Origin: Candidatus Peregrinibacteria bacterium Greene0416_19
Lineage (GTDB): Bacteria > Patescibacteriota > Gracilibacteria > Peribacterales > Peribacteraceae
Length of the DNA: 64,000 bases
NCBI GenBank assembly: GCA_007375735.1
Contig: VMEW01000001.1
Location: 11,831-75,830, forward strand
Reading direction: 5' to 3'
The position numbers were made by a program, and so were the translations under genes. The notes below the pieces were generated by a model, which saw only the letters and a program-made list of their open reading frames with translations, was not told where the DNA came from and searched no databases. This document shows, piece by piece, positions 51 to 64,000 of the stretch (position 1 is its first letter; every line of letters begins with the position of its first letter).

Positions 51-335
51 TCACTGAAAATTCACCACGATTAAAAACAACAGGAACACCACCAGCGGTG
101 CGGCGATCATAGTTGCCAGGAACCGCGAATGCGACCGCCCTGCGGCCAGACTCAGGTACACGCTGAACCCGCCGAACATCATCGCCACGAGCATGAAGGG
201 GAGGCGGGCGGCCTGCAGCCACCAGGCGCTCCACGGGAGGAGGATGTCGTTGCGCATCAGCACGTACGACAGGAAGAACGTCGCGCCGATGACGTAGAAG
301 AGGATCCCGGAGAGCTGGTGGAGGAACCGCGGCAC
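51..335 (-). CDS. small integral membrane protein (hypothetical)
   Basis: 94-aa ORF with three hydrophobic helices. The GTG start lies 6 nt downstream of a TACCAT box (complement of 342-347). No family recognised. Confidence 0.5.
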   Translation of the reverse strand: MPRFLHQLSGILFYVIGATFFLSYVLMRNDILLPWSAWWLQAARLPFMLVAMMFGGFSVYLSLAAGRSHSRFLATMIAAPLVVFLLFLIVVNFQ

Positions 336-434
336 CGCCGTATGGTATCACCAGCCTTCGCCGCGTGGCTACGGCCGGCAAGAACAGATAGTACTCATTT
401 TTCCAGATTGTATTGCTGCCAATGCCAGTGAGAT

Positions 435-590
435 CTACAGGTTCTTCTTTTTCTTCCGGTGCTGCACGGTCAGGATCTTGCGTCCTGTGCGGCGCCTGCG
501 GGCCAGCACCTTGCGGCCATCCGATGTCTTGCTGCGCTTGAGGAAGCCGTGCTTGCGGAGCCGCCGGCGCCATTTCAACTTGTTCAACAT
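435..590 (-). CDS. rpmH: 50S ribosomal protein L34
   Basis: Not in the ORF track (51 aa). Hand translation of the minus strand gives [51 protein letters not shown]. The core [21 protein letters not shown] is the L34 signature. ATG at 590, TAG at 437-435. Confidence 0.9.
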
Positions 591-610
591 CCGGCATAGA
601 GTACATCCAA

Positions 611-642
611 ATTCTCAATTTTCAATTCTCAATTTTCAATTA
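611..642. repeat. tandem ATTCTCAATTTTCA words in the divergent rpmH/M16 promoter region
   Basis: ATTCTCAATTTTCA occurs at 611-624 and again at 625-638, followed by a partial third unit. Related ATTCTC(A/C)ATT words occur at 4779-4807, 10835-10893 and 31745-31755. Confidence 0.8.
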
Positions 643-653
643 CACTCTGTCCC

Positions 654-3459: not shown

Positions 3460-4809
3460 TCAATTTGACGAAGCCGACGATGACGCCTTCTGCGTCACAT
3501 CCTCATGATCCAGCAGCCACTCTAGCGCAGCATCCAGCTGCGGATCGCGCTTGGCCTTCGCGTCCTCCACCGTCCGGTCCATCTTGATATCCGGCTGCAC
3601 CTTCTCCTTCCCTAAATTCTTTCCTTTGGGGGTCAGCCAGTGGGCGATGGTGACGCGCAGACTGCTGCCGCCGGGCAAATCGATGATTTCCTGCACCGTC
3701 CCCTTGCCGAAGGTTGGCATGCCGACCAACATTGCTCTCTTGTGGTCCTGCAGGGCACCGGCGGTGATCTCCGACGCCGACGCCGATCCTTCGTTGATAA
3801 GGACGACCAGAGGCAGCGTCGGCTCGATGACCCGCCCGTTCACGTCGTGATGTATCGAATCGGCGTCACGGCGTTCCACGGATACCACCCGTCCCTCCTT
3901 CAGGAACATCGACACGAGCTGGGTCGCACCCTCCAGGTAGCCCCCTCCGTTGAAGCGCAGGTCGAGGATGAGAGCTTTGATGGGCGGCTTTTCCTTCTTG
4001 AAAGTCTGCAGAGCCTCCCGCACTTCGTTGATGCTGTTCTCGCCGAACTGATTCAGGATGATCACGCCCACGGCCCCGCTCTGGGTTTGCTTGACCGATG
4101 ATTCCACGCTCGGGATGCGGATTTCGTCGCGGACGATCACGAGCGTACGTTCTCTTCCTTCGTTCTTGCGGAAGACGTTGAGCACCACCTTCGTTCCCTT
4201 GGGACCGCGGATCAGGTCCACGACCTGCGTGAGCGTGAGCCCCTGCACCGTGGTGCCGTCCACTTCCAGAATGATATCATCGGGGGCCAGGCCCGCCTTC
4301 TCGGCCGGCGATCCCTTGAGCGGCGATACCACGATGATCAGGCCGTCGCGTTCCACCAGCTCCGCGCCGATGCCTTGGAGTTTGCCGTTCAATGACTGGC
4401 GGAAATTCGTGTTTTCCTTGGGTGTCATGAACACGGTGTACGGATCGCCAATCGAGCGCACCAGCCCCTCCACCGCGCCGTACACCATCTTGCCGGTCTG
4501 CAGCTTGTCCGGCTCGATGTGGAAGCGCAGGAGCAGCCGCCACACGCTCCAGAGGAGCGCGAGGTCCACCTCCCGTTCCGGATCGGACATCACCTGTCCG
4601 CTCCCGGTCGCCGGGGAGAAGATCCGGTCGATCGCCCCCATCTTGTCTTCCAGCACTTTCACCTGGTACCGCATGCCCAAATGCCAGCCGAGCAGCAGCG
4701 CGAGCAGAATCAGCAGCCAGTAGCGATAATCTCTATACATACCCGCATGGAGCATGACGAATGGCGAACGAAAGAAACTCTCCATTCCCATTCTCCATTC
4801 GCAATTCAC
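3460..4809 (-). CDS. S41 family C-terminal processing peptidase with PDZ domain
   Basis: 449 aa. N-terminal TM helix, PDZ-like segment (GLAPDDIILEVDG) and S41 core with TFGKGTVQ. GTG start at 4809. Confidence 0.9.
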   Translation of the reverse strand: MNCEWRMGMESFFRSPFVMLHAGMYRDYRYWLLILLALLLGWHLGMRYQVKVLEDKMGAIDRIFSPATGSGQVMSDPEREVDLALLWSVWRLLLRFHIEPDKLQTGKMVYGAVEGLVRSIGDPYTVFMTPKENTNFRQSLNGKLQGIGAELVERDGLIIVVSPLKGSPAEKAGLAPDDIILEVDGTTVQGLTLTQVVDLIRGPKGTKVVLNVFRKNEGRERTLVIVRDEIRIPSVESSVKQTQSGAVGVIILNQFGENSINEVREALQTFKKEKPPIKALILDLRFNGGGYLEGATQLVSMFLKEGRVVSVERRDADSIHHDVNGRVIEPTLPLVVLINEGSASASEITAGALQDHKRAMLVGMPTFGKGTVQEIIDLPGGSSLRVTIAHWLTPKGKNLGKEKVQPDIKMDRTVEDAKAKRDPQLDAALEWLLDHEDVTQKASSSASSN

Positions 4810-4813
4810 CGAT

Positions 4814-4820
4814 TAGGATA
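4814..4820. promoter_or_regulatory. overlapping -10 boxes for two divergent, apparently leaderless genes
   Basis: TAGGAT (4814-4819, + strand) lies 6 nt before ATG 4826. TATCCT (complement of 4815-4820) lies 5 nt before GTG 4809. Only 16 nt separate the two start codons. Confidence 0.55.
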
Positions 4821-4825
4821 GGCCT

Positions 4826-5410
4826 ATGGTAAAGGCCAGATCGAGAATGCACAAACAGGCTTCAAAGCACTCGATCCGCATCACGAGCGCCATGCCGGTC
4901 GGTGACATCGTCGCGCTGCTGCCGGACGCACAGGGGTTGCTTGCGGAGTACGGCCTGCACTGCGCCGGTTGCTCGGTGGGCATGGTGGAGTCGCTCGAGG
5001 ATGGCTGTTCCATGCATGGGATCGACGACGCGGAGATCACGGAGCTGGTCGATGACCTGAACACGCTGCTGGACCGCATGCCGCAGCGGCCGCAGTCTCT
5101 GACGCTCACGTCCGCCGCCGCCCGCGCCATCCGCAAGGTGGCTGAGAAGGAGGGCAGAACAGGACAAGGCCTCGTCGTCGTGGTGGACAGTCATGGGGGC
5201 TTCTGCATGGAATTCCGCCAGGATGGCGATGGAAATGAGCGGACATTCACGAACGAGGAAGAGCCGGATGTTCACATCTTCGCATCAACGCTGACCCTGC
5301 AGCGGATCGGCGGATCGACCATCGATTTCCGCGAGGGGAGGTTTAAGCTGGATTTGGCGGAGGATGCGGGCTCTGGATGCGCATGTGGAGGTAGTTGCAA
5401 TTGTAAGTAA
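4826..5410 (+). CDS. DUF1858 (hybrid-cluster-associated redox disulfide domain) fused to a HesB/IscA-like Fe-S assembly domain
   Basis: N-terminal YGLHCAGCSVG...HGIDD motif is DUF1858-like. The C-terminal half resembles IscA/HesB and ends in a Cys-rich tail, GSGCACGGSCNCK. Confidence 0.7.
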   Translation: MVKARSRMHKQASKHSIRITSAMPVGDIVALLPDAQGLLAEYGLHCAGCSVGMVESLEDGCSMHGIDDAEITELVDDLNTLLDRMPQRPQSLTLTSAAARAIRKVAEKEGRTGQGLVVVVDSHGGFCMEFRQDGDGNERTFTNEEEPDVHIFASTLTLQRIGGSTIDFREGRFKLDLAEDAGSGCACGGSCNCK

Positions 5411-5509: not shown

Positions 5510-5552
5510 GTTGATGATGGTTTTCGTTTTCAGTTCTTCTATACTGATTTTC

Positions 5553-6128
5553 ATGATCCGCCTCCCCGCCGCCCTGGAGCGTCTGCTCGCCGAACTCTTC
5601 CCGCGGATGCGCGAGCGCGATGAGTTTGTGATTCGGGCGATCGAGGAGGCGCTGGGGGAAGACGCACCGGAAGAAACCGAGCCGAAGGCGGTCGGCGGTA
5701 CTCTGCACCTCTTCACCGACGGCGGGTCGCGGGGGAACCCCGGGCAGGCGGCGATTGCTGCCATTCTGGAGGATCCGACACGCGGTGAGACGCTGAAACA
5801 ATATGCCGGACGCATCGGCATCGAGACCAATAACATCGCAGAGTACAGGGCGCTGATCGAAGGGTTGAAGATGGCCCGGCAGTTTCACCCGAACCGGCTC
5901 ATCTGTCACCTGGATGCGGAACTGGTGGTGAAGCAGCTCAACGGCGAGTACCGCGTGAAGATGCTCACGTTCGAGCCGCTGGTGCAGGAGATCCGCGACC
6001 TCTCCATGGACTTTCCCGACATCGTCTTCAAGCACATCCCGCGGGGCGACAACTACCGAGCCGACGCGTTGGTGAACAAGGTCTTGGACGAGCACCCGTC
6101 GCCGAGCTACAAACCGCCGCGCCATTGA
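5553..6128 (+). CDS. rnhA: ribonuclease H (type 1)
   Basis: FTDGGSRGNPG, NNIAEYRALIEGL and IPRGDNYRADALV motifs. ATG 5553 lies 7 nt after TATACT 5540-5545. The track start 5364 would read through the REP doublet. Confidence 0.85.
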   Translation: MIRLPAALERLLAELFPRMRERDEFVIRAIEEALGEDAPEETEPKAVGGTLHLFTDGGSRGNPGQAAIAAILEDPTRGETLKQYAGRIGIETNNIAEYRALIEGLKMARQFHPNRLICHLDAELVVKQLNGEYRVKMLTFEPLVQEIRDLSMDFPDIVFKHIPRGDNYRADALVNKVLDEHPSPSYKPPRH

Positions 6129-6178
6129 TCGCCGATTGATCGACAAACGAAGACCGGGCTCCGTACAATGGCGCCCGC

Positions 6179-7465
6179 ATGCGCTGCCTCATCGGACTCC
6201 TCGGCGTACTCGGCATCCTCGGTTTCGTCGGGCCGGCGCAGGCCGCACCGGATATCCTCACCTACCGCTACCAGCACCATCTCTTCGCCCTGCGGCCCTC
6301 TGCTCTCCCGGGTTGGCGGTCTCTTAGGGAGGTATGGATGGCGGACGGCCGGGAGATTGTGCCGCCGCCGGCATTTCGGGTGGATGGTGATGCACCGCCG
6401 CCGCTCCCGACTGGCGTCAGTGTCATCCGGAAAAACGGCTGGAACACAGCCGCAATCCGGGAGACGCTGCGGCAGCGTATCGGCGCATTCCTGCACCGCG
6501 ATGCGGGACGGGTGACGGTCCATCGCACCGGCTCCGGTGACATCACCTTCGACGGCGTCGGCCTCACGGGACGCGAGGTCAATCTGGAGCTCCTGGCCGG
6601 GCTGACTGTGTCTGCCTTGGAACAGAACGTTTCGGAAGTCCTTGTTCCAGTGATCGAGACGCAGCCGGAGATCACGGTGACGGATCCGTCCCTCGCCGAG
6701 CTGGGGATCAAGGAAGTCATCACGATCGGCGAATCCGACTACAGCAACTCGCCGCGCAACCGCCTTCACAACATCGCAGTAGGATTGAACAAGTTCAACG
6801 GGCATCTGATCCAGCCCGACGAAGTCTTTTCTTTCGTCAAAGTACTTGGGCCGGTGGACGGATCGACGGGATACCTGAAAGAACTTGTGATCAAGGGCGA
6901 CAGGACGGTCCCCGATTATGGTGGCGGTCTCTGCCAGGTGGGCACTACCGCCTATCGCGGCGTGTGGGAGTACGGTTTCCCCATCGTCCAGCGCCAGAAC
7001 CACAGCTACACGGTGAGTCACTACTTCCCCTACGGAACGGACGCGACGGTGTATCCGCCCTTCATCGACATGAAGTTCAGGAACGATCTGAAAAGCGGGC
7101 TCCTCATCCAGACGTACCAGCAGGGCGATTTCGCGTACTTCATCTACTACGGCACCCGGGACGGACGTTCAACCGAGCTCTACGGCCCCTACACCTGGGA
7201 CAAGACCGAGCCCCCGCCGGATCGTACCGAGGAGACGACCGACCTGCCGCCGGGCGAGCGCAAGAAGCTCAACGAACGCATCCCGGGCCTGAAGGCGATA
7301 TGGCACCGCATCGTCCGCACGTCGACCGGCGCGGAGATCGGGGAGCCGGTCTTCAGCAGCTACGAGGCACGGCCGCTCTTCTATCAGCTGGGGGTGGAGA
7401 GGTTACCGGAGAGTGAGCCGACGGTGGAGGAGGTGAATCAGGCGGAACCGCCGAGGGCGTTCTGA
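6179..7465 (+). CDS. VanW family protein
   Basis: Signal-peptide-like N-terminus (LLGVLGILGFVGPAQA). VanW core: GGGLCQVGTTAYRG...QNHSY.VSHY. Confidence 0.85.
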   Translation: MRCLIGLLGVLGILGFVGPAQAAPDILTYRYQHHLFALRPSALPGWRSLREVWMADGREIVPPPAFRVDGDAPPPLPTGVSVIRKNGWNTAAIRETLRQRIGAFLHRDAGRVTVHRTGSGDITFDGVGLTGREVNLELLAGLTVSALEQNVSEVLVPVIETQPEITVTDPSLAELGIKEVITIGESDYSNSPRNRLHNIAVGLNKFNGHLIQPDEVFSFVKVLGPVDGSTGYLKELVIKGDRTVPDYGGGLCQVGTTAYRGVWEYGFPIVQRQNHSYTVSHYFPYGTDATVYPPFIDMKFRNDLKSGLLIQTYQQGDFAYFIYYGTRDGRSTELYGPYTWDKTEPPPDRTEETTDLPPGERKKLNERIPGLKAIWHRIVRTSTGAEIGEPVFSSYEARPLFYQLGVERLPESEPTVEEVNQAEPPRAF

Positions 7466-7492
7466 GAGTTGTGAGCGTCGCGGCTGTTATAC

Positions 7493-7727
7493 ATGCCCCC
7501 TCCCCCGGCCCCTCCCCCTCGGCCTCGACCCTCTGGGGTCTCGGCCTGGGAGAGGGGAAGGTTAATCTTTCAATGCCGCACGGCGGAGCCGTGCTGCTGA
7601 TTGCAATAATGAACAATTGATCGTAGCAGCACGGCTCCGCCGTGCGGCATTCACCTACGCCTTGCCCTCTCCCAGGCCGTAGGCCCGCAGGCTGAGGCCG
7701 AGGGGGAGGGGTCGGGGGAGGGGGCAT
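7493..7727. repeat. 235-bp nested palindromic element (ATGCCCCC-terminus family)
   Basis: Outer 34-bp arms 7493-7526 / 7694-7727 have 1 mismatch. The middle arms contain CGGCCTGGGAGAGGG. Inner perfect 27-bp arms are 7572-7598 / 7625-7651. Confidence 0.9.
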
Positions 7728-7763
7728 GGAACAAGGCGGGCAAAAACTCGCTACAATCCTCAG

Positions 7764-8216
7764 GTGGACTTCCTCGTCTTCCGTCGCGCGTGGAGCCTGT
7801 CGCCGGTAACTCAGGTCGTGGCAATCGTCATTCTTTATCTGCTCTCCATCGTCGTTGGATATGTCGAGTTGCACACAAAGGGCACGTTTTTCGGATATCC
7901 GCTCTCCATCTCCATCCTCTTCGTGCCCATCTACGAAGAAATCATTTTCCGCGGTTTCATACTCGAAGCGCTGGCGAAGCGGTACTCGCCGGTGGCATCG
8001 GTGCTCCTGTCGTCGTTGCTTTTCGCCCTGTGGCATGCAAAGAATATTTTTTTCGTGCCGGTGAATGACGTGATTATGCAAATGATCTACACCGGCTGCG
8101 TCATCGGACCGATCTTCGGATTCATGGCTATGAAGAAGCGGACCGTCTGGCCAAGTGTGATTCTACATTATCTCAATAACATCGTGAGTCGGGTTCCGGC
8201 GATATTCTTGGTTTGA
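7764..8216 (+). CDS. CPBP (CAAX/Abi) family intramembrane metalloprotease, short form
   Basis: Motifs EEIIFRG (EExxxR), FALWH and HYLNN. GTG start 6 nt after TACAAT 7752-7757. Only 150 aa. Confidence 0.8.
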   Translation: MDFLVFRRAWSLSPVTQVVAIVILYLLSIVVGYVELHTKGTFFGYPLSISILFVPIYEEIIFRGFILEALAKRYSPVASVLLSSLLFALWHAKNIFFVPVNDVIMQMIYTGCVIGPIFGFMAMKKRTVWPSVILHYLNNIVSRVPAIFLV

Positions 8217-8341: not shown

Positions 8342-8415
8342 ACGGTGAAAGAATTTGCGTTGTAGCCGAGATTTTGATTATTGAAAAAAATGTGTTTTAC
8401 ATGTATTATATACAT

Positions 8416-9186
8416 ATGAAACTGCACACACCTTCTTCTTTGACAGGTCCCTCCGCCCCGTTGGAGCCCGAAGGTGCACTGCCTGTTTCCGATACGATAG
8501 AGCGAGACCGGGCTCAGAGCGGAAATATCGCACGTAGGATGGCTGATCTTCCGACTGCGCCGGAGTACCGCAATGGTCTGCCCGTGCTCACCCCGGAGGA
8601 ATTCCGCACCAATTACAACACGGATCAGGGTATCAACGGCATCGGGTCCATGACCACGTTCGATTTCCAAGGTTACGTTCGGACGAAAGACGGTGTCCAT
8701 TTCAAGGATGTTCTGGCGACTAACGGTCTCCTGAAGACGGAAACGTGTAAGGGCATACATGTGGGCACGGATGGAATCGTGGATTACAGTGCGATGACAG
8801 AAAATCGTCAGATGAAAGGTCCTCAGGATGTCGGAGAGTACGATATGTACATCCTCGTTCCCGGTGAGATTCAGCGGCAAACCGGCTGCGTGTGTGAATG
8901 CGATTCGTGTCGACGTCTTGATGATTTCAACGGTACAAAGGAAGAACTTGAAAAAATCTACAGTGGAGAAGGCTACATCGTCATCCGCATGATGCTGGAT
9001 CCCAAAGAAGACCCCCATGCGAGGGACAAAGCTGCCATCATCCATGATCTCATTGTGCATCACATCCGCGCAGGGAAGCCCCTCTATGAGATCGAATCGC
9101 TCCAGCGCGAGTGGGAGGGCAGATTGATGGGCATCTCGGAAAACGATCTGCATCGCGAGATGCGCACTCGGCATTTACTGGCATGA
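8416..9186 (+). CDS. hypothetical protein (no family recognised)
   Basis: 256 aa from ATG 8416, which lies 6 nt after TATTAT 8404-8409 in an AT-rich stretch. GC looks lower than the surroundings. Contains CVCECDSC. The opposite-strand ORF 8224..9174 looks like a shadow. Confidence 0.55.
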   Translation: MKLHTPSSLTGPSAPLEPEGALPVSDTIERDRAQSGNIARRMADLPTAPEYRNGLPVLTPEEFRTNYNTDQGINGIGSMTTFDFQGYVRTKDGVHFKDVLATNGLLKTETCKGIHVGTDGIVDYSAMTENRQMKGPQDVGEYDMYILVPGEIQRQTGCVCECDSCRRLDDFNGTKEELEKIYSGEGYIVIRMMLDPKEDPHARDKAAIIHDLIVHHIRAGKPLYEIESLQREWEGRLMGISENDLHREMRTRHLLA

Positions 9187-9254: not shown

Positions 9255-9862
9255 GCCCTTAGCGGCGACGACAACTGCTCGCGGAGAATGTGATTGGTCA
9301 GCGCTTTCAGCTGCTCCGGAGAGGAGGGCACCGGAAGGTTCCTGAAATCCCCTTGCAACGCCACGTGCACGAACAGGTGATCGGCCACTTCCACATTTGC
9401 CATCTCCTCGATCTCCTCCGTCCCAGGCAAAAAGCCCAGATGATGGAGGAGGTGCAGCGTGTAGGCGAGGACGAGGTGCGGGACATCCTTTCCGCAGAGC
9501 ATGAGGAAGAGGCAGGTGGCGTCGAAGATTTTCGGGAGCGGCTCTTCTGCCTGCGTGAGTATAAGGAGAAGTTCGATTCCCTGTTGCGCTTCCGTGAAAA
9601 AGGACAGAGTGGCCACAGGTCTCTCACCTTTGGACTGCACGCCCGCGATGATCGACCCGGCTCGACTCTCTTTTAATTGCACAAGTGCTCGTTGAAATGG
9701 CAGGAGCGTGCCGCCCATCCGGCTCTTCAACTTCCGGACTCCTGAAGCCCTGGCCGATACTCTGCCGAGCTCCCGCGTCAGGAGCACGCAGTAGCGGTCC
9801 GCCTCGCCGACATCGTAGGTGCGGAGAATGAGAGCGTCGACGGTTCTCGCGTGCGGCATCAC
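9230..9862 (-). CDS. recO: DNA repair protein RecO
   Basis: N-terminal OB-fold-like DALILRTYDVGEADRYCVLLTRELGRVSARASGVRK is typical of RecO. Start is GTG 9862 or ATG 9859, downstream of TATGAT (complement of 9868-9873). Confidence 0.85.
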   Translation of the reverse strand: MMPHARTVDALILRTYDVGEADRYCVLLTRELGRVSARASGVRKLKSRMGGTLLPFQRALVQLKESRAGSIIAGVQSKGERPVATLSFFTEAQQGIELLLILTQAEEPLPKIFDATCLFLMLCGKDVPHLVLAYTLHLLHHLGFLPGTEEIEEMANVEVADHLFVHVALQGDFRNLPVPSSPEQLKALTNHILREQLSSPLRAAGVVGRM

Positions 9863-9868
9863 TGCGCA

Positions 9869-10804
9869 TCATACCTTCCTCACCCCCCACCAGGCTCCAA
9901 CAACACTGATAAAGGGAACGCACAAAATCTGAAGAGCCAGGATCCAGAACCAGGAGCGCCGCAGCAGGTGGACCACTTCCCGGGTGAGGCCGCCGAAGGC
10001 GCCGTCAGCCGCCAGCGCCGGCACGGCGAGCGGCAGCAGATTGACGATGACGGCCGTGAGCAGCGTGGCGAGCAGGAGCGAGAGGAGGAGGAGGATTCCC
10101 GCCTCCATCGCGAAAGGCAGGAGGACCGACACCTCGTCCGCGCCCACCAGGCGCTCCACCGTCACTTCCTCTTCCCGGGCCGCCGACCGGCTGCGGATGA
10201 GGGACACGGTCACGGCCAGCACCACGACAGACAGAAGCACGATGAGGAGCGAAACCAGAGCGCGGATAGCCAGGGTTACGTGCAGAAGTTCCCGCGCCTC
10301 CCGTTCCTGGTCCGTGGCTTTGGTCAGGTACGAGGGATCGATCACGCTCTTCCACTGCGGTTGCCTCGTGAACGTGATGAAGGAGTCCACGTCTTCGAGC
10401 GACCGCAACGTCACCCCGATCGTATCCGGGAACGGATTGCGGAGACCGTACTTTTCCAGGAATTGGACAAGGTTGGGGTCGCGCCTCCGTTCCTCTTCGT
10501 ACGCTTTCTCCTTGGTGATGTAGACGGCACGTTCGACCGCAGGGAGGGCCCGCGCCGCCGCGAAGAATAGCTGCGCGTCCTGGTCGGTGGCGCTCGTGAG
10601 CAGCTCTAGGCGCAGATCGGTCCGCGCGCGTAGCAGGTGCTGCAGCCCCTGCACGCCGATCATCAGGAACAGGAACAGCTGTCCGAGCAAGACGATGCCG
10701 AGCAGGGTGGTGAAGGCGCCGGCCCAGGTGCGCTCACGCAACAGGGAGACATACCCGCGCCGGAGACCCCGCTTGACGGTGAGAAGAGTCAGTCCATGAA
10801 GCAC
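9869..10804 (-). CDS. FtsX-like permease (cell-division/ABC-type)
   Basis: N-terminal TM, large extracytoplasmic loop and three C-terminal TMs. I prefer GTG 10804 (7 nt after TATACT, complement of 10812-10817). The track start 10897 reads through an AT-rich repeat. No ftsE is adjacent. Confidence 0.7.
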   Translation of the reverse strand: MLHGLTLLTVKRGLRRGYVSLLRERTWAGAFTTLLGIVLLGQLFLFLMIGVQGLQHLLRARTDLRLELLTSATDQDAQLFFAAARALPAVERAVYITKEKAYEEERRRDPNLVQFLEKYGLRNPFPDTIGVTLRSLEDVDSFITFTRQPQWKSVIDPSYLTKATDQEREARELLHVTLAIRALVSLLIVLLSVVVLAVTVSLIRSRSAAREEEVTVERLVGADEVSVLLPFAMEAGILLLLSLLLATLLTAVIVNLLPLAVPALAADGAFGGLTREVVHLLRRSWFWILALQILCVPFISVVGAWWGVRKV

Positions 10805-10834
10805 GGTGGTCAGTATAGACGCTCGCCCGCCGGC

Positions 10835-10893
10835 ATTGAGAATTGAGAATTGAAAATTGAGCATTACATTCTCCATTCTCAATTCAGCATTCC
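10835..10893. repeat. AT-rich imperfect palindrome of ATTGAGAAT / ATTCTCNATT words
   Basis: ATTGAGAATTGAGAATTGAAAATTGAGCATTACATTCTCCATTCTCAATTCAGCATTCC. Same word family as 611-642 and 4779-4807. Confidence 0.75.
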
Positions 10894-10898
10894 CCACA

Positions 10899-11531
10899 TC
10901 ATGAGACGGCTTGCTTCGCTTTCTCGCGCCTTCTCGGCTCCGCGAGCGACATCAAGTGCTCGGTCGTCTGCAGACACTCCTTCGCGCGGCGGTTCTCCGG
11001 TTCCAGATCCAGCGCGCGGCGGAAGAGCATGATCGCTTTGGAAAAGTGGCGTACTTGCAGGTACGCCACCCCCAGGTCGCAGAGAGTGAGGACGCTGTCC
11101 TTGTCAATATTGAGCGACCGCTCGAGCGTGACGACGCCCTGCGCGCGCTTACCGGCATTGAAGAGAGACCACCCCAGACATCGCAGGATCTCGCTGTTAT
11201 TCGGCTTCAATGCGTTAGCGGTCTTGAGTTGCCGAGTGGACTCGCGCCAGTGTTCCTCACGTGAGCGCAGGAAACCCAGAATGTAGTAGCCGGTGTAGCT
11301 CTCCCGATCGAGGCGCACCGCTTCCGCCGCCGCCGCCTCCGCCCGAGCATGGCGGCCCAGGCTCAGTTCGTTGTCAGCGATTTCCTCCAGTGCGGATACG
11401 TTGCTGGGATCTTCCAGCAGAAGTTCCTCCAGGATCATGAGTGCGGCTACATGATCTCCCTGGAGCTTGAGCTGTTCCGCATGCTCGAGGCGATCCAACG
11501 TGTCATCGGACCCGTCGTCGTGAGGCATCAT
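10899..11531 (-). CDS. tetratricopeptide repeat protein
   Basis: 210 aa with several TPR-like 34-aa units (A..Y..LG/A..AL.L.P). ATG lies 8 nt after TACAAT (complement of 11540-11545). Confidence 0.8.
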   Translation of the reverse strand: MMPHDDGSDDTLDRLEHAEQLKLQGDHVAALMILEELLLEDPSNVSALEEIADNELSLGRHARAEAAAAEAVRLDRESYTGYYILGFLRSREEHWRESTRQLKTANALKPNNSEILRCLGWSLFNAGKRAQGVVTLERSLNIDKDSVLTLCDLGVAYLQVRHFSKAIMLFRRALDLEPENRRAKECLQTTEHLMSLAEPRRREKAKQAVS

Positions 11532-11690
11532 GATGCCCCATTGTAGGGAAGACCAGTGTGGTTGCCAGTATTTTTCTGGCCATTCTTCCCTTGCATGCCT
11601 TCCGTGAGTCCATCAGTCACGATCGGCACCACCAATGAACATCTTGTGGCTTCCGCAAGAGCTCTTGTAAACTTCATCCGTTCATTTTCT

Positions 11691-13479: not shown

Positions 13480-13480
13480 T

Positions 13481-23003: not shown

Positions 23004-23006
23004 AAA

Positions 23007-52479: not shown

Positions 52480-52480
52480 G

Positions 52481-52869: not shown

Positions 52870-52873
52870 GCAG

Positions 52874-54055: not shown

Positions 54056-54082
54056 GAGTGTGAGACTACCATTTCTAGGCCC

Positions 54083-54253
54083 ATGCCCCCACCCCCGACC
54101 CCTCCCCCTCCCTCCGGTCGGGAGAGGGGAGAGACGTCTGAGGTGTATTCCCACAGCTTCACAAAGATTATGGAGAGAAGCAGGATGCCTTCTTCCTGAA
54201 TGGAGCTCCCCTCTCCCGACGATAGGAGGGGGAGGGGTCGGGGGTGGGGGCAT
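54083..54253. repeat. 171-bp palindromic element (ATGCCCCC-terminus family) in a divergent promoter region
   Basis: Perfect 29-bp arms ATGCCCCCACCCCCGACCCCTCCCCCTCC (54083-54111) / 54225-54253. Inner 14-bp arms 54118-54131 / 54206-54219. Confidence 0.9.
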
Positions 54254-54320
54254 GAATCAGGAGATCACAACCTTCGATCGACGCTTGTGCTTGGGCAAGT
54301 CGCTCTCCATACTTTCCCCA

Positions 54321-55235
54321 ATGACCACGCTCGTCACGGGCTCCTCCGGCACCATCGGCACGCGGCTCGTGGAAATGATGCTTGAGCGGAAGATCCCCGT
54401 GATGGGTATCGACTGGATGCCCAACAAATGGCAACCGTCCGTGCATGCAGTCACACGACAATGCGACCTTCGCGACTTTCAAGCGCTCGAGCGGCTGGAG
54501 CTTCCGGCAGATGTGGACACAATTATTCACCTGGCCGCAAACGCCCGTGTGTACGAGCTGGTCGAAGACCCGGATCGCGCGCGGGATAACATGATGACCA
54601 CGTACAACGTGCTGGAGTATGCGCGGCGGAAGGGCATCAGACGGTTTCTGTTCGCGTCGTCACGGGAAGTGTATGGCAACGCAGGACACGAGACGTACAG
54701 CGAGGACATGATCACTGTGCCGGGCTGCGAAAGCCCGTACACCGCGAGCAAGATTGCCGGTGAAGCGCTCATGCAGGCCTACACGCGTTGCTACAGCATG
54801 GATCATATCATCTTCCGGTTCAGCAACGTCTACGGCATGTACGATGACAGCAACCGCGTCATCCCACTCTTCCTGCGCTTGGCCCAGAACAATGAGACGC
54901 TCGTGGTATTCGGGAAGGAGAAGTGTCTGGACTTCACCTACATCGATGACACGGTGGAGGGCGTGTTGCTGGGCCTTGAACGATTCGATGCAGTGAAAAA
55001 TGGTACCTACAACCTGGCGTACGGTGAGGGGACGACCATCCTGCACCTGGCGGAACGGGTGAAGGATCTTACCGGCAGCACATCGGAGATTCGCATTGCC
55101 TCCTCCCGTCGCGGAGAGGTGACCAACTACGTCGCCGACATCTCGCAAGCGAAGGCGGCGCTCGGGTACACCCCAAAAACATCCTTCGCGGACGGCATCC
55201 GGAGGACGGCGGAGTGGTACGGGGCGCATACCTGA
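54321..55235 (+). CDS. NAD-dependent sugar epimerase/dehydratase (SDR)
   Basis: VTGSSGTIGTRL and YTASKIAGE motifs. ATG 54321 lies 7 nt after CATACT 54308-54313. Confidence 0.85.
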   Translation: MTTLVTGSSGTIGTRLVEMMLERKIPVMGIDWMPNKWQPSVHAVTRQCDLRDFQALERLELPADVDTIIHLAANARVYELVEDPDRARDNMMTTYNVLEYARRKGIRRFLFASSREVYGNAGHETYSEDMITVPGCESPYTASKIAGEALMQAYTRCYSMDHIIFRFSNVYGMYDDSNRVIPLFLRLAQNNETLVVFGKEKCLDFTYIDDTVEGVLLGLERFDAVKNGTYNLAYGEGTTILHLAERVKDLTGSTSEIRIASSRRGEVTNYVADISQAKAALGYTPKTSFADGIRRTAEWYGAHT

Positions 55236-55238: not shown

Positions 55239-56213
55239 TCATAGGCTGACCAGCCACTGCCTCCTCCGTACGCGTGATGCCATAAGTGGAAACGAGAGAG
55301 GTGTTCGCCGATCCTTCGTCCGGACGGATCCGAGTCCCGCTTCGAATCCGTGCTCCTGCTTCAGCCATCGCGAGAGTTGTCGGAGTTCACGGATGTATGG
55401 TGCATAGATGTGTGTAGCGATCAAACTACTTCCTTCCATGTGGTAGGTCGCAAGGCCTGTGTCGTAGAGCCAGGGTTTGAGCAGCTTCAGCCCATGGAAA
55501 TGGTAGAAGACAAGCGGCCGCCCGTCGACGAGAACGTTCGTCCCGTCCCATGCATACCGGTGGGTATCCAGATTCCACGGTGCAACGTTGAGGCCGGGAT
55601 GCGTTGCAATCTTCACGTTCCGGAAGAGCCGCGGCACCTGCTCCAGATACTTCTGGTTCGAGAATTTCCCATCCTCCACCCGGTCATGGCACCACTCGAT
55701 GCACCGGTCACACCACCACTGCACGGCCTTCGCGCCTTCGGGGGTTTTCGTGGCTGCGCAGAAGCCGGCATTGAAAAGCCCATTCTGGAGCTTCGAGTGG
55801 AGATGCTCGGGGAACCCGTGCGGAGTGAGGAGTATCTCACTTGCGCCGATCTCCCGAGCGATGGCATCGGGAGAGGAGAAGAACCACAGGTCACCGTCGA
55901 GGTAGGTGAGGAGCGTGCCTTCCGACAGACGGTCCAGCACCGAGCGGAGCAGAAAGGGTTTGCTGGTCGCGATGTACTCGTACGACCCCCGCTGGGGTTT
56001 GACGGCCGGGAGCTCCGGATAGGCTGTCTCCACCTCCCGCAGGCTGAAGGCGCTCACGGACGGAATCTTCATGCGGTCAAACAGAGCGAAGGATGCATCG
56101 TCCGTGCACAGGATCCAGAGCCTGAAAGACGTTCCCTGCCGCTCCAGCGAGCGGATGAGCGCCATCGTCCGCAGGACGAAGTGCGCGTCGATCATGGTGC
56201 AGAATTCGAGCAC
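55239..56213 (-). CDS. putative nucleotide-diphospho-sugar transferase (GT-A-like, family not recognised)
   Basis: YLDGDLWFF (DxD) after a Rossmann-like N-terminal half. GTG 56213 lies 6 nt after TACCAT (complement of 56220-56225). Confidence 0.6.
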   Translation of the reverse strand: MLEFCTMIDAHFVLRTMALIRSLERQGTSFRLWILCTDDASFALFDRMKIPSVSAFSLREVETAYPELPAVKPQRGSYEYIATSKPFLLRSVLDRLSEGTLLTYLDGDLWFFSSPDAIAREIGASEILLTPHGFPEHLHSKLQNGLFNAGFCAATKTPEGAKAVQWWCDRCIEWCHDRVEDGKFSNQKYLEQVPRLFRNVKIATHPGLNVAPWNLDTHRYAWDGTNVLVDGRPLVFYHFHGLKLLKPWLYDTGLATYHMEGSSLIATHIYAPYIRELRQLSRWLKQEHGFEAGLGSVRTKDRRTPLSFPLMASRVRRRQWLVSL

Positions 56214-56289
56214 GAAGCGATGGTATCACCATGGCCGTGCGTGCGCTCTCCGGCTTGAGAATCATCAATTCCTCCCATACCCTGCCTGC

Positions 56290-58131
56290 ATGTGCGGCAT
56301 AGCGGGATACACCGGCATCGATGAGCGGGAGTACCTCCAAAAAATGACCGACCGGCTGTTCCACCGCGGCCCGGATGACGGCGGGGAATACCATTCCGCG
56401 GAAGATTGCGTGCATCTTGGCATGCGTCGACTGGCGATTGTGGATATCAAGGATGGCGTGCAGCCCATGACGACGGCCGACGGCCGGTTCTGCATCGTGT
56501 ATAACGGTGAAATATTCAATGCGCCGGAACTGCGGAAAGAATTGGAATCCCAGGGCAGAGCATTCCGCACCGACCACTCGGATACCGAGGTCATCCTCCA
56601 GCTCTATGCGCGCGACGGCGCCATGGCACCCGGCCGGCTCAACGGCATGTTCGCATTCGCCATCTACGATCGCGATCGGCGCACCCTCTTCTGCGCACGG
56701 GATCAGGCCGGCATCAAGCCATTCTTCTACAGTGTCGGTCCGGACGGACGGTTCTCCTTTGCATCAGAAATCAAAGCTTTGTTGTTGCTTCCCTGGGTCG
56801 AGCGAGCGATCGACCGCCAGGCGGTGGCGGACTTCCTCAGCTTCCAGGCCATACCTGCGCCGCGAACTATCTACAGCGCCATCCGCAAGCTGCCGGCGGG
56901 TGCCAGCCTGATCTACTCCCTTGCCGATCACTCCGTTTCCGTTCTGCCATACTGGACACCGCCGGTGGACCTGTACCGCCGTGATCCCCTGCGCGCCGAT
57001 CCACGCGAGTATCCACGCATCATCCGGGGCGCCTTCGAGCGGGCGGTGAATCGTTGGTCCACGAGCGACGTACCGATTGCCTATTCGCTCTCCGGCGGTA
57101 TCGATTCCTCCGCCGTCGTCGGTGCGAGCGCACATATTCTGAAAGGTCCGCTCGCGACGTACACGCTCGGCTTCACCGATAGCCCGGATCTGGATGAGCG
57201 CGCGCCTGCGCGGGAGGTGGCAGCGATGTGGAACACGGATCACCATGAAATCCTGCTGACGGAGCAGGATCTTCTCGGCTCGCTCGATGCGATGGCGGAT
57301 GCGCTCGATGAGCCGTACGCCGGAGGCCTGCCCTCCTGGTTCGTGTTTCGGGAGATGGGCAGGCACGTGAAAGTGGCCATGACCGGCACGGGTGGCGACG
57401 AGCTCTTCGGGAATTACGGGAAATGGCTGGCGCACGAGTGGGGCGGCAAGCGCCTCACGCGCATCCGCACGTTCCTCCGTAACGGCGGCAGCATGCGCCA
57501 CCTCCTCGCCTCTCCCCACGGAGCCCTCCACTACCCGTACTTCACCGATGCCGCCAAACAATCGCTCCTCACCCCGGCATTCGCATCGGGACTCTCCCCC
57601 TCCACAGCATTGCTCGAACACTTGTGGCGCGCGAGCCCCGATGCTGATCCCAGGAGCAGGGTTGCCTTCATGGACTTCCAACTGCAGCTGCCCGAGGAAT
57701 TTCTCTTCATGACGGACAGGTTCTCCATGGCGCACTCAGTGGAAGCCCGCACACCGCTCCTCGACCGGGAACTCGTCGAGACGGTGTTCCGCATCCCCCC
57801 GGAAGCGCGTACGACGAGCGGATCCCTCAAGCGGCTCTTCATCGCCGCCGTCGCCGACCTGCTTCCGCCGGCTGTCCTCTCCTCGCGCAAGCGGGGGTTC
57901 GTCCTGCCCGCCGGCCGGTGGCTCCGGGGGCGGCTCCGGCCGCTCGTGGAGGATCTGTGCAATCCTTCTTCCCTGCGGACGCAGGGCATTTTTCAGGAGT
58001 CCGTCTTCGAGCAGATCGTCCGTCCGCATCTCTCGGGCGAACGAAACCTCGACTGGCAACTCTGGACGATCCTGAGTTTCCAGCTGTGGTACGACCACTT
58101 CATTTCTCCGTCGCGGGTTTCCGTGCGTTGA
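56290..58131 (+). CDS. asparagine synthase (glutamine-hydrolysing)-like amidotransferase
   Basis: MCGIAG N-terminus (Cys2 nucleophile) and PP-loop SLSGGIDSS. 613 aa from ATG 56290. Confidence 0.9.
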   Translation: MCGIAGYTGIDEREYLQKMTDRLFHRGPDDGGEYHSAEDCVHLGMRRLAIVDIKDGVQPMTTADGRFCIVYNGEIFNAPELRKELESQGRAFRTDHSDTEVILQLYARDGAMAPGRLNGMFAFAIYDRDRRTLFCARDQAGIKPFFYSVGPDGRFSFASEIKALLLLPWVERAIDRQAVADFLSFQAIPAPRTIYSAIRKLPAGASLIYSLADHSVSVLPYWTPPVDLYRRDPLRADPREYPRIIRGAFERAVNRWSTSDVPIAYSLSGGIDSSAVVGASAHILKGPLATYTLGFTDSPDLDERAPAREVAAMWNTDHHEILLTEQDLLGSLDAMADALDEPYAGGLPSWFVFREMGRHVKVAMTGTGGDELFGNYGKWLAHEWGGKRLTRIRTFLRNGGSMRHLLASPHGALHYPYFTDAAKQSLLTPAFASGLSPSTALLEHLWRASPDADPRSRVAFMDFQLQLPEEFLFMTDRFSMAHSVEARTPLLDRELVETVFRIPPEARTTSGSLKRLFIAAVADLLPPAVLSSRKRGFVLPAGRWLRGRLRPLVEDLCNPSSLRTQGIFQESVFEQIVRPHLSGERNLDWQLWTILSFQLWYDHFISPSRVSVR

Positions 58132-61447: not shown

Positions 61448-61453
61448 AGTCGG

Positions 61454-62608
61454 TCAGTAGGTCAGTTGCTTCTGTACGGAGAGAGTCGCCGTGGAGAGGA
61501 TGTCCGCGATCTTTTCGCCAGCCGTTCCGTCCCCGTAGAGTGTGTCCGGCTCGTACGGGCCGTGCGCCAGCTGCTTTTTCACCGCCGAGACGATCGCCGC
61601 GTGATCGTGACCGGCATCCAGGATATTCGCTCCCCGGTCACGCCCGGTCTGGCGTGTGCCGACGTTCACGACCGGCACCCCCAGGAAGCTCCCCTCGCGG
61701 ATGGCGGCGCTGGAGTTGCCCACCATGCAGGCGCAGTGGCGCATGATGGGGATGAAGGTTTCCACCGGCAGATTCTTGTAGAAGCGTATGTAGCTGTCGT
61801 CTTTGTGTTCGCGGAAGATGCGGATGCCCTGCGCAATGTCTTCCGATCCGGCGTCGGCATTGGGCCAGAAGAAGATGGTGGGGATGTGTAACTCCTCGAT
61901 TGCCTTGAGCGTTTCTTCAATCTGGTCGCGGCCCTGCCCGTACTCGGTGGTGACCGGGTGCTGCATCACGAGCAGGTAGGGCTTGCGGAAGTCGATACCT
62001 CCTCCCACCCCCTCCTGAAGGAGCAGCGGCAGTGACGCCGGATCGGAGTGCAGCCGCGCCACCTCCGCCACCAGGTCCATCCGCGGGCAGCCCACCACGT
62101 GCACCCGCTTCGGATCCTCCCCCATGCGGATGATGCGATCGGCGGCCCGGTCGTTGGATGGGAAGTGCAACTGGGCCAGCTTGGTGACCGCATGTCGGAT
62201 GCTCTCGTCGATGGTGCCGCTCACCTCGCCCCCCATCGTGTGGGCGAGGGGGATGTTCATGTACGCCGCGGCCACCGCGGTCGCCATCGTCTCGAAGCGG
62301 TCGCCCACCGTCACCACCGCGTCCGGCCGCAAGCGGTCGAATACCCGCGCGAGCTCGATCAGCCCTAGCCCGGTCGACTGCGCCATCGTCAGCGGTGTCT
62401 CGCCCTCGATCAGCATGTGCACCCGCTCGTCGGGGGCAAAGCCGTCTTTCTCCATGAATTTGACCACCGATCCATACCGGTCGAGCAGGGCCGATGCGCC
62501 AACCACCACCTGGAGCGCGAGATCCGGATGCGCCTGTACCGCCCGCATCACGCTCTTGATGGAGCTGTAGTTTGCCCGTGAGCCGACGACGACGCAGATT
62601 GTGCGCAT
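61454..62608 (-). CDS. neuC: UDP-N-acetylglucosamine 2-epimerase (hydrolysing) type
   Basis: MRTICVVVGSRANYSSIKSV N-terminus, HTMGGEVSGTIDE and GNSSAAIREG motifs. Confidence 0.85.
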   Translation of the reverse strand: MRTICVVVGSRANYSSIKSVMRAVQAHPDLALQVVVGASALLDRYGSVVKFMEKDGFAPDERVHMLIEGETPLTMAQSTGLGLIELARVFDRLRPDAVVTVGDRFETMATAVAAAYMNIPLAHTMGGEVSGTIDESIRHAVTKLAQLHFPSNDRAADRIIRMGEDPKRVHVVGCPRMDLVAEVARLHSDPASLPLLLQEGVGGGIDFRKPYLLVMQHPVTTEYGQGRDQIEETLKAIEELHIPTIFFWPNADAGSEDIAQGIRIFREHKDDSYIRFYKNLPVETFIPIMRHCACMVGNSSAAIREGSFLGVPVVNVGTRQTGRDRGANILDAGHDHAAIVSAVKKQLAHGPYEPDTLYGDGTAGEKIADILSTATLSVQKQLTY

Positions 62609-62619
62609 AGGGAATTGGC

Positions 62620-63627
62620 TCAGGAGAACTTTTGGAGATCAGATGGTATCATGACAGTATCAGCCGGGATGTCCCGTGTTGCCCTCGTACCGATCACGTC
62701 CGAAATCCTGGCTGCTGGGATCCCGGTGCCTGGCTTCTTGATGCCGAGCATGGCCCGTGTGACGGTTGTGCCTTTCTTGATGGGAACGAGTGCAGCCACG
62801 CTCTTCTCAAATGTCTGCTTCATATTCTTGAATCGCGATGCATCGGATTTGTCCACGGGATGATGCAGCATCGCCTCCGCCGCGCGGATGACCTCGCACA
62901 TCTGGCGAAACTCAGCCGGCTCGAGCGAATGCTTCGCATCGCTGCCGTACATGTGCCGACTGAAGGTGAGGTGTTTCTCAATGACGCTCGCGCCCAAGGT
63001 CACCGCCGCGATCGGCGCCGCGAGTGTCATCGTGTGGTCGGACAGGCCGACGGGGCATTGGTACCGCTCGCGCATTTCCGCAAGCAGGTTCAGGCCCACC
63101 TGCTCCGGGGGGCACGGATACTCGGAGGTGCACTGCAGCACGGTCAGATCGTTGCCGCCGCGACGGATCGTCTCCACCGCACGATCGAGCTCTTCCCATG
63201 AACTCATGCCCGAGGAGAGGATGACCGGCTTGCCCGTCGCTGCGATCTTTTCAAGTAAGGGGAGATTCGTGACCTCGCCCGACGGGACTTTGTAGCGCGC
63301 AACCCCGACCTTCTCGAGCAGATCGACCGCCTCTTCGCTGAAGGGGGAAGACAGGAACTCGATGCCTGTTCCGTCAGCATGCTCTTTCAGTTTCTTCCAT
63401 TGTTCGAGCATGAAGCCGGTCCGCCTGAAGTACTCGTAGCGCGACTCGTCTTTGAAGTAGGGGGACGACGGCGCGTCCTTCGTTGTTTCCGCATCGGCGA
63501 TGTGCGTCTGGAACTTGACCGCGTCGGCGCCCACGTCCTTCGCCAGCTCGATCAATCTCTTGGCGTTTCCGAAGCTCCCGTCGTGGACGGAGCCGATCTC
63601 GGCGATGATGAGGACGCGGGTGCTCAT
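62620..63627 (-). CDS. neuB: N-acetylneuraminate (nonulosonate) synthase with SAF domain
   Basis: IIAEIGSVHDGS and AVKFQTH motifs, with a C-terminal SAF-like segment (GTGIPA...IG). Confidence 0.9.
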   Translation of the reverse strand: MSTRVLIIAEIGSVHDGSFGNAKRLIELAKDVGADAVKFQTHIADAETTKDAPSSPYFKDESRYEYFRRTGFMLEQWKKLKEHADGTGIEFLSSPFSEEAVDLLEKVGVARYKVPSGEVTNLPLLEKIAATGKPVILSSGMSSWEELDRAVETIRRGGNDLTVLQCTSEYPCPPEQVGLNLLAEMRERYQCPVGLSDHTMTLAAPIAAVTLGASVIEKHLTFSRHMYGSDAKHSLEPAEFRQMCEVIRAAEAMLHHPVDKSDASRFKNMKQTFEKSVAALVPIKKGTTVTRAMLGIKKPGTGIPAARISDVIGTRATRDIPADTVMIPSDLQKFS

Positions 63628-63724
63628 TGGATGCTATTGAAGCATGTTTGCGGCTGAACGGCCATACCCACGTCGTCCTTTCACCGCTTCTGGTTGCCGG
63701 TCTTTGGCGGTATGATGGTCGTCA

Positions 63725-64000
63725 ATGCGGAAGCTGGTCATCATCGGCTCGGGCGCCCAGAGCATCGACATTCTGGAGACGGTTCATGCCATCAATGAGC
63801 GACAGCCCACATACGCTCTCACCGGTTTCCTGGATGACGACGTGTCGCTGAGGGGAAAAGAGATATTCGGGCTGCCCATACTCGGCCCCATTGCGGACGG
63901 AGCATCTCTGCCTTCGGACACCTTCTTCGTCAGCGGAATCGGGTTATTGTCCCTCCTCGCCCGCCGGCCCGCCATCATTGCGCGCACCGGCGTCAGCCCC
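63725..64000 (+). CDS. NeuD/PglD-like sugar acetyltransferase, 5' partial (runs off the window)
   Basis: Not in the ORF track because there is no stop. Hand translation gives MRKLVIIGSGAQSIDILETVHAINERQPTYALTGFLDDD..GKEIFGLPILGP, typical of the NeuD/PglD N-terminal domain. ATG lies 8 nt after TATGAT 63711-63716. Confidence 0.6.
   Translation, partial: MRKLVIIGSGAQSIDILETVHAINERQPTYALTGFLDDDVSLRGKEIFGLPILGPIADGASLPSDTFFVSGIGLLSLLARRPAIIARTGVSP

Follow-up and report, generated by a model that had tools for sequence, protein, structure and literature searches.

Start-adjacent TAnnnT boxes point to predominantly leaderless transcription units in a 64-kb stretch of a Candidatus Peribacteria genome

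The closest described precedent for promoters that abut start codons is the GeneMarkS-2 "group C", in which a Pribnow box lies 6-8 nucleotides (nt) from the starts of first genes; Lomsadze et al. 2018 (PMC6028130) predicted this architecture in 1028 of 4769 bacteria, chiefly Actinobacteria and Deinococcus-Thermus, in which 25-50% of the operons are leaderless. In Deinococcus deserti, as summarised in the same paper, 167 of 262 genes with a mapped transcription start site (TSS) were leaderless (de Groot et al. 2014). Here we examine a 64,000-nt stretch (the window) of contig VMEW01000001.1 (positions 11,831 to 75,830) of Candidatus Peregrinibacteria bacterium Greene0416_19, for which an initial annotation had proposed predominantly leaderless transcription units on account of TAnnnT boxes just upstream of many start codons. 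The D. deserti leaderless study of de Groot and colleagues reportedly also found a -10 motif of the TAnnnT type shortly before the start codon. The pattern of boxes indicates, with good confidence, that most transcription units in the window are leaderless, via start-adjacent -10 boxes.

Two gene sets underlie the counts: i) a curated set of 65 genes of the window, and ii) a box-blind set of 59 genes, in which each start is the candidate with the highest coding score among six-frame open reading frames (ORFs) under a self-trained codon log-likelihood model. The gap is the number of nt between box end and start codon, and boxes were scored at gaps of 5-9. In the curated set 43 of the 65 genes (about two thirds) are boxed. 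With starts chosen blind to the box, 26 of 59 genes are boxed (28 boxes in all): gaps of 5, 6, 7, 8 and 9 hold 4, 9, 8, 5 and 2 boxes, with a peak at 6-7, versus ~2.9 boxes in each of the other upstream 5-nt bins. The chance of a TAnnnT match per hexamer position is ~0.008 at the 59.7% GC of the window. At the box-blind starts TAnnnT ranks first of the 64 patterns of the form XYnnnZ (28 matches versus 11 for the second), and a box precedes just 1.1% of 906 in-frame ATG/GTG codons inside genes.

Such boxes might arise as an artefact if AT-richer intergenic DNA and free choice among candidate starts together yielded chance matches; some starts in the initial annotation had indeed been picked because of a box, and any-candidate starts give on average 7.3 of 59 boxed genes in control bins. 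Yet local shuffles of the 40 nt upstream, which keep composition, yielded 3.8 boxed genes on average, and never more than 13 in 2000 trials, against the 26 found, neighbouring offsets in the same DNA stay at ~2.9 per bin, and the same pipeline finds no excess in AT-rich Clostridia. The enrichment over shuffled controls expected from the initial annotation therefore holds with starts chosen blind to the box, the artefact is refuted, and the start-adjacent TAnnnT signal is real and far above chance. When any candidate start is allowed, 37 of 59 genes are boxed, and the control-corrected estimate is that ~57% of window genes and ~75% of window first genes have a real start-adjacent box (lineage-wide, ~40% of first genes). 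A gene counts as first if its neighbour is divergent or if 40 nt or more separate it from the gene before it; the others, which follow closely, are internal.

Measured against the described systems, the window resembles group C in its -10 box 6-8 nt from the first-gene start, its weak or absent -35 element, its ATG/GTG starts and the lack of the motif at internal genes. Unlike group C, it belongs to the Peribacteria of the Candidate Phyla Radiation (CPR), which are not among the group-C-rich groups named in the text of PMC6028130; its estimated share of boxed genes and first genes lies above the 25-50% of operons reported for that group; and its remaining genes mostly lack a Shine-Dalgarno (SD) sequence, whereas the non-leaderless genes of group C are described as using SD. 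The predicted leaderless fraction is comparably high to that of D. deserti (64%), but the latter, from another phylum, has experimental TSS and proteogenomic support, whereas the window is known from sequence alone. Haloarchaea (GeneMarkS-2 group D) likewise have a majority of leaderless transcripts and very little SD; their box, however, lies ~26 nt upstream, whereas the window has a bacterial -10 motif and no enrichment at gaps of 20-30. The architecture itself is thus known from group C, and what appears new is its probable presence in CPR/Peribacteria, its high frequency and its SD-poor background. A literature search found no paper reporting leaderless mRNAs in CPR, Patescibacteria, Saccharibacteria or Peribacteria. 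The initial annotation had named Actinobacteria and Deinococcus-Thermus as groups with many leaderless mRNAs and had assigned the window to no lineage; the present organism stands outside both groups.

A second explanation is that TAnnnT is a non-SD ribosome-binding or translation signal in short 5' leaders, as in the GeneMarkS-2 "group B" (Bacteroidetes-type non-SD initiation), with the promoters further upstream. The box distance of 5-9 nt equals typical ribosome-binding-site spacing, and SD is nearly absent in the lineage, as it is scarce in group B, so that another signal might be expected. A translation signal should mark internal genes too, however, and the motif of group B does precede first and internal genes alike, whereas in the curated set 38 of 48 first genes are boxed versus five of 17 operon-internal genes (Fisher p = 6e-4); GeneMarkS-2 uses this very comparison to tell promoters from non-SD ribosome-binding sites (PMC6028130). 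The box also never precedes TTG (0 of 32 TTG candidates versus 40 of 157 ATG/GTG candidates). RNA polymerase initiates preferentially with a purine, and the usual distance from -10 box to TSS matches the gap mode of 6-7 nt. Moreover, the invariant positions of the box are those of the sigma-70 -10 element (consensus TAYNMT), and before the box-blind starts gaps of 10-45 show no enrichment of a further box.

Room for leaders is lacking at three divergent pairs, whose starts lie 16, 24 and 22 nt apart and whose boxes overlap on opposite strands; the promoters of leadered mRNAs would there fall inside the neighbouring coding sequence. In the first, TATCCT stands at gap 5 from GTG 4809 of an S41 protease (4807-4820, minus strand) and overlaps TAGGAT at gap 6 from ATG 4826 of a DUF1858 protein (4814-4828, plus). 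The second joins SufU/NifU (TATAAT, gap 5, ATG 13479; 13477-13490, minus) to a 97-amino-acid (aa) protein (TATAAT, gap 6, ATG 13504; 13492-13506, plus), and the third a GT8 gene (TACACT, gap 6, GTG 34952; 34950-34964, minus) to a 536-aa hypothetical protein (TACACT, gap 6, ATG 34975; 34963-34977, plus). Given the first-gene bias, the absence of TTG, the gap mode and these pairs, the box is read as a promoter, and we regard a ribosome-binding role as very unlikely. Full -35/-10 promoters are not above chance in the window (seven found, 4.7 expected), the -35 search giving a weak T/G excess ~20-22 nt upstream of the box; the promoters thus appear to be "-10 only". Between box and start the sequence is rich in C (42%).

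Several observations bear on whether translation truly begins at the boxed codons. As a class-II glutamine amidotransferase, AsnB must start with Met-Cys, and its Met-Cys ATG 56290 (MCGIAG) has TACCCT exactly 6 nt upstream (56278-56292, plus), 73 in-frame upstream codons being ruled out. The L34 ORF at 590 (TACTCT, gap 7, ATG; 588-603, minus; rpmH, with Pfam Ribosomal_L34 in the public record) has an N-terminus that aligns with the family's, and the NDK Pfam model begins at residue 2 of the protein from GTG 2952 (TATACT, gap 6; 2940-2954, plus; promoter 37 nt past the upstream gene). Ortholog start residues coincide with the boxed starts for SufU, SufS (TATACT, gap 8, ATG 15026; 15024-15040, minus), a lineage-specific 938-aa protein (TAGACT, gap 6, GTG 15183; 15171-15185, plus), GT2 (TATCCT, gap 7, ATG 18158, not 18104; 18145-18160, plus), DUF2304 (TAACAT, gap 7, ATG 18834; 18821-18836, plus; box overlapping the GT2 stop codon) and two GT4 genes (TACTCT, gap 8, ATG 19246; 19232-19248, plus; and TAGGAT, gap 7, ATG 24568; 24555-24570, plus).

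Coding potential points the same way: in 16 genes with an alternative upstream start the extension scores -0.11 per codon and the 40 codons that follow the boxed start +0.24 (p = 5e-14), the mean codon score of coding sequence in the same model being 0.27. The public record has gene calls for 27 boxed genes; 20 of these calls agree with the boxed start, and seven lie elsewhere: 2952 (called at 2934), 4809 (4785), 5553 (5436), 8416 (8539), 10804 (10864), 24568 (24523) and 56213 (56195). Independent evidence favours the boxed start over the public call in the case of Ndk and of GT4 24568. The initial annotation had held that the box resolves several ambiguous starts, and it does so for ndk, rnhA, the ftsX-like gene, GT-C 39552, SGNH-like 54055 and GT4 24568; the start of GT8 is not decided by it.

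The source lineage is Candidatus Peribacteria (CPR), as judged from gene order and the nearest protein relatives. The SufS protein of the window was found encoded on metagenome contig ENA ERZ27284380 k139_731739 (230,958 bp), and its closest relatives in a species-representative genome set are four Candidatus Peribacteria metagenome-assembled genomes (MAGs) at 56-60% identity. An order of 10 genes (SufU, SufS, the 938-aa protein, GT2, DUF2304, GT4, GT4, RmlA, RmlB, GT4) is common to the window and these MAGs at 46-69% identity. The GC content of Ca. Peribacter riflensis is 58.5% (PMC4736985), and NCBI places the lineage in phylum Peregrinibacteriota, class Peribacteria.

The box-blind pipeline was applied to 80 loci around SufS and later to 13 further metagenomic loci with the 938-aa gene. 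Clostridia had no positional excess and 59-74% SD, Acidimicrobiia had 14-25% boxed starts, and the window had 47%. In the four Peribacteria loci 18 of 59 starts were boxed with almost no SD, and pooling the lineage loci gave 67 boxed starts of 227 versus 17 per control bin, with a peak at gaps 6-7. The start-adjacent signal was seen again in 16 related loci, and the gene-class bias recurred (48 of 136 first genes versus eight of 56 internal genes in the lineage loci, p = 0.003). Individual boxes are also kept: one at gap 5-10 precedes 11 of 15 SufS orthologs and 11 of 14 orthologs of the 938-aa gene, where chance would give ~5-12%, and boxes persist upstream of orthologs at 46-60% amino-acid identity while the spacer sequence around them is not conserved. 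Other orthologs are boxed variably (DUF2304 8/14, GT4 5/13, GT2 3/16, SufU 2/14). The reading as start-adjacent promoters of predominantly leaderless units, put forward in the initial annotation, is supported by position, gene class, start codon, coding potential, fixed starts and conservation.

The boxes may on the other hand be real but secondary promoters, expression coming mainly from longer leadered or polycistronic transcripts, so that leaderless mRNAs are present without being dominant. Some boxed genes stand close behind a same-strand gene (Ndk 37 nt, RecO 9, DUF2304 10, GT-C 12, DUF5989 4); intrinsic terminators between same-strand boxed genes show a marginal excess only (20 found versus 13.9 expected), so that read-through is plausible; and the flanks and the lineage have lower fractions, ~40-55%. 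Expression from longer transcripts would nevertheless need internal initiation, yet the boxed starts have neither SD nor a coupled stop codon, and at the 23 boxed starts that face a divergent neighbour a same-strand transcript would have to cross the opposite gene. We consider secondary promoters an unlikely account.

Several points weigh against predominantly leaderless units. The ~19-kb flanks of the same contig replicate weakly, with two of 17 box-blind starts boxed; when alternative in-frame starts are allowed there, six of 10 first genes are boxed versus 1.0 expected, and none of seven internal genes. The preference for pyrimidine at -1 and purine at +1 that a TSS should show does not discriminate (62% pyrimidine at -1 at boxed versus 73% at unboxed starts). 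A gap of 5-9 nt is also typical SD spacing, so that spacing alone would also suit a non-SD ribosome-binding signal. Gaps of 8-10 nt, frequent at SufS orthologs, imply leaders of 2-3 nt rather than zero, and ~7 of the boxed genes may be chance matches, as the any-candidate control bins indicate. Finally, a literature search for TSS maps in CPR found only 188 RNA-seq-inferred sites in Nanosynbacter lyticus and no Peribacteria set. On the same contig outside the window (locus L085), annotated divergent starts at 4286 (minus) and 4289 (plus) lie 2 nt apart and neither is boxed; an alternative GTG 4241 has TACCCT at gap 7.

From the positions of the boxes and the gene classes that carry them we infer where transcription starts and how ribosomes load. 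A housekeeping sigma-70-type RNA polymerase would recognise the -10 box (TAnnnT) with no conserved -35 and would start transcription 6-8 nt downstream of it, on the A/G of ATG/GTG, or within ~2-3 nt of it at gaps of 8-9. The mRNA would then begin with the start codon, and the ribosome would load on the 5'-terminal AUG/GUG with initiator tRNA and no SD pairing. Some downstream genes (Ndk, RecO, DUF2304, GT-C 28986 and DUF5989) would be transcribed from a start-adjacent promoter of their own, embedded in the final part of the preceding gene; others, whose starts lack SD and lie -11 to +20 nt from the preceding stop, would rely on termination-reinitiation coupling; and a minority would be leadered, namely four genes with a good SD and rmlA and rmlB with G-poor repeat leaders.

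The 37 boxes and starts listed in the initial annotation (19 on the plus strand and 18 on the minus strand) all lie where that list places them, at gaps of 5-9 nt. One small correction concerns the hexamer at 54308-54313, which is CATACT and not TAnnnT; the overlapping TACTTT at 54310-54315, at gap 5, fits. A check of genes left unboxed added six starts, at 18834, 28986, 44406, 48536, 52869 and 56290. Among 42 boxed curated genes the first-listed gaps are 6 nt (16 genes), 7 (13), 8 (nine), 5 (three) and 9 (one), and the start codons are 30 ATG and 12 GTG; DUF5989, with ATG 52869 at gap 6, was added later. The remaining rows are given below as box, gap and start codon, with the span from box to start codon and the strand.

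In the part of the window with housekeeping genes, TACCAT at gap 6 from GTG 335 (333-347, minus) belongs to a 94-aa gene downstream of rpmH with the same start in the public gene call, and TACACT at gap 7 from ATG 654 (641-656, plus) to an M16 peptidase. RNase H has TATACT at gap 7 from ATG 5553 (5540-5555, plus), in agreement with the coding-potential start. VanW has TACAAT at gap 9 from ATG 6179 (6164-6181, plus), where TCGACA-18-TACAAT is present, and a CAAX protease has TACAAT at gap 6 from GTG 7764 (7752-7766, plus). A 256-aa hypothetical protein has TATTAT at gap 6 from ATG 8416 (8404-8418, plus); its start is uncertain, with coding potential against it. TATGAT of RecO (9857-9873, minus) stands at gap 8 from ATG 9859 or gap 5 from GTG 9862, both possible, the promoter lying within the final nt of the preceding gene. 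The FtsX-like gene has TATACT at gap 7 from GTG 10804 (10802-10817, minus), and a TPR protein TACAAT at gap 8 from ATG 11531 (11529-11545, minus).

Further along, on the plus strand, TATTCT at gap 7 from ATG 26048 (26035-26050) marks the GT4 gene at the head of the array 26048-30365, and TATGAT at gap 6 from GTG 28986 (28974-28988) the added GT-C/PMT_2 gene, with a promoter within the operon. Then come TATTCT, gap 8, ATG 31759 (31745-31761, a 106-aa hypothetical protein); TACAAT, gap 6, ATG 42677 (42665-42679, GT4); TATGAT, gap 7, ATG 44406 (44393-44408, an added 134-aa hypothetical protein); TACTCT, gap 6, ATG 45031 (45019-45033, DegT aminotransferase); TATTTT, gap 7, ATG 48536 (48523-48538, the added SLH-domain protein); TACTTT, gap 5, ATG 54321 (54310-54323, an epimerase; overlapped by CATACT); and TATGAT, gap 8, ATG 63725 (63711-63727, a hexapeptide transferase that continues past the window end). 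The minus strand has TATGAT, gap 6, GTG 31611 (31609-31623, a 342-aa hypothetical protein); TATCAT, gap 7, ATG 33279 (33277-33292, GT87-like, with a GC-rich hairpin just upstream); TACCAT, gap 8, ATG 37587 (37585-37601, GT2); TATCCT, gap 8, ATG 38073 (38071-38087, GtrA); TATACT, gap 6, GTG 39552 (39550-39564, GT-C/PMT_2); TAATCT, gap 8, ATG 47219 (47217-47233, a 66-aa hydrophobic ORF doubtful as a gene); TACGGT, gap 7, ATG 48273 (48271-48286, SGNH hydrolase); TACTAT, gap 6, ATG 52869 (52867-52881, DUF5989, its start taken from the public gene call); TAGTCT, gap 7, GTG 54055 (54053-54068, SGNH-like); and TACCAT, gap 6, GTG 56213 (56211-56225, a 324-aa hypothetical protein).

The genes without a box fall into several kinds. 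The initial annotation had noted GGAG(G) at three starts (24445, 34066 and 42610), all correct, and a fourth is 44243: AGGAG lies 6 nt before ATG 24445 (24443-24456, minus), GGAGG 8 nt before ATG 34066 (34064-34079, minus) and before ATG 42610 (42608-42623, minus), and AGGAG 7 nt before GTG 44243 (44241-44255, minus), each predicted to be a leadered gene. Because GGAG/GAGG at spacing 6-9 clusters only at unboxed genes of the window, SD-led initiation probably still works in this organism. In eleven closely following unboxed genes, SD is absent and the start lies -11 to +20 nt from the stop of the preceding gene, which fits termination-reinitiation coupling. The divergent rmlA/rmlB spacer (23004-23144) has central TATAAT/TATCAT on the plus strand and TACTAT on the minus strand, with no box at the starts and no SD; the predicted leaders are ~35-60 nt long, with G-poor 9-nt repeats reaching both ATGs. 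At start 12094 TAGAAT lies at gap 12, and the starts at 20836, IS200 50180 and NeuB 63627 are uncertain.

Among 143 unboxed lineage genes, SD at spacing 5-10 gave seven matches versus 12.6 per equivalent bin elsewhere, with no positional peak, whereas the same pipeline finds an SD peak in the controls (70 versus 1.4 in Clostridia, 21 versus 3.8 in Acidimicrobiia and 26 versus 3.6 in Sneathiella). The 25 nt upstream of unboxed lineage genes are pyrimidine-rich, with sense-strand G below C (5.0 versus 7.0, p = 3e-6), the opposite of the SD-using controls.

G-poor 7-9-nt tandem repeats (AATTCTC, TCTCCAT, TCTCCTGAA and similar) immediately precede promoters or starts at 610-641, 4779-4800, 10835-10896, 18031-18065 and 23006-23141 of the window, and also occur upstream of SufU, GT2 and DUF2304 orthologs in five lineage loci (L001, L002, L004, L091 and L098). 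They are often mirrored across divergent spacers, and in relatives G-free tracts reach unboxed ATGs. They may serve as upstream promoter elements or as SD-independent leaders without structure. At 7492-7728, 54083-54253 and ~44870-45000, the intergenic DNA shortly before boxed promoters contains long nested palindromes that share their ends (ATGCCCCCWCCCCCGRCCCCTCCCCCTC ... GAGGGGGAGGGGTCGGGGGWGGGGGCAT), and the spacer 7466-7763 is 81% self-complementary over 247 nt. These may represent a family of elements resembling repetitive extragenic palindromes (REP) or miniature inverted-repeat transposable elements (MITE), or bidirectional terminators or insulators.

By Pfam, the window holds housekeeping genes (including L34, M16 peptidase, Ndk, S41 protease, RNase H, RecO, FtsX-like and SufS/SufU) and then a large glycosylation and cell-envelope island, including many GT2/GT4/GT-C glycosyltransferases, RmlA/B, NeuB, CMP-sugar synthase, AsnB, carbamoyltransferase and an SLH-domain protein. 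The minus-strand operon 50719-54055 encodes the SGNH-like protein, DUF5989 (52 aa), an SxtJ-like protein and the carbamoyltransferase, with stop/start overlaps of 1 nt or spacings of 1-4 nt; it sits in the nonulosonic-acid/glycan part of the island with NeuB, CMP-sugar synthase, UDP-GlcNAc 2-epimerase, AsnB and the SLH-domain protein 48536, which suggests decoration of an S-layer or surface glycan. The 938-aa protein (15183-17999, plus) is without a Pfam domain, shares 46-57% identity among relatives and is head-to-head with SufS in the loci examined (the window, L001-L004 and L087-L099); its gene appears to be specific to Peribacteria. The IS200-type Y1 transposase gene or fragment at 50180-50635 (plus) has neither box nor SD, and hairpin-like sequence lies upstream of it. 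A tRNA gene lies near SufU in the window (tRNA-Thr GGT, 11787-11861, plus) and in three relatives (L002, L003 and L004, ~11.7 kb), so that synteny is kept; no TAnnnT was found within 87 nt upstream of the tRNA-Thr of the window. The window, the contig flanks and 13 lineage loci (~340 kb in total) contain no rRNA genes, tRNAs being the only such genes, and no riboswitches or leader RNAs.

The reduced ribosomes of CPR make the question of translation start directly relevant to these organisms. Work on kasugamycin in E. coli is said to tie bS21-lacking ribosomes to leaderless translation. Peregrinibacteria are frequently without ribosomal protein bS21 (PMC9297842), and ribosomes without bS21 have been linked to leaderless translation (PMC4929434), so that in Peribacteria the loss of bS21 may be tied to the leaderless regime. 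We put forward, tentatively and as somewhat doubtful, the wider proposal that Peribacteria, often lacking bS21, have largely abandoned SD-led initiation: leaderless units would form the majority, with a share that equals or exceeds the highest known in Bacteria, internal genes would use coupling or embedded promoters, and other leadered genes would use pyrimidine-rich, G-poor leaders. If true, this initiation regime would differ from the one in Actinobacteria and Deinococcus, where non-leaderless genes retain SD, and it may tie to ribosome reduction.

For the genome, ~43 promoters per 64 kb implies very small transcription units, with divergent promoters overlapping within 16-24 nt. Gene starts in MAGs of the lineage would be mis-set by SD-tuned callers, e.g., those of Ndk, RNase H, FtsX-like and GT4 24568, and box-guided calling would correct N-termini, signal peptides and intergenic maps. 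Heavy leaderless use would thereby extend to the Candidate Phyla Radiation, organisms not yet grown alone, and the near-absence of SD together with start-adjacent promoters provides a concrete hypothesis for metatranscriptomics.

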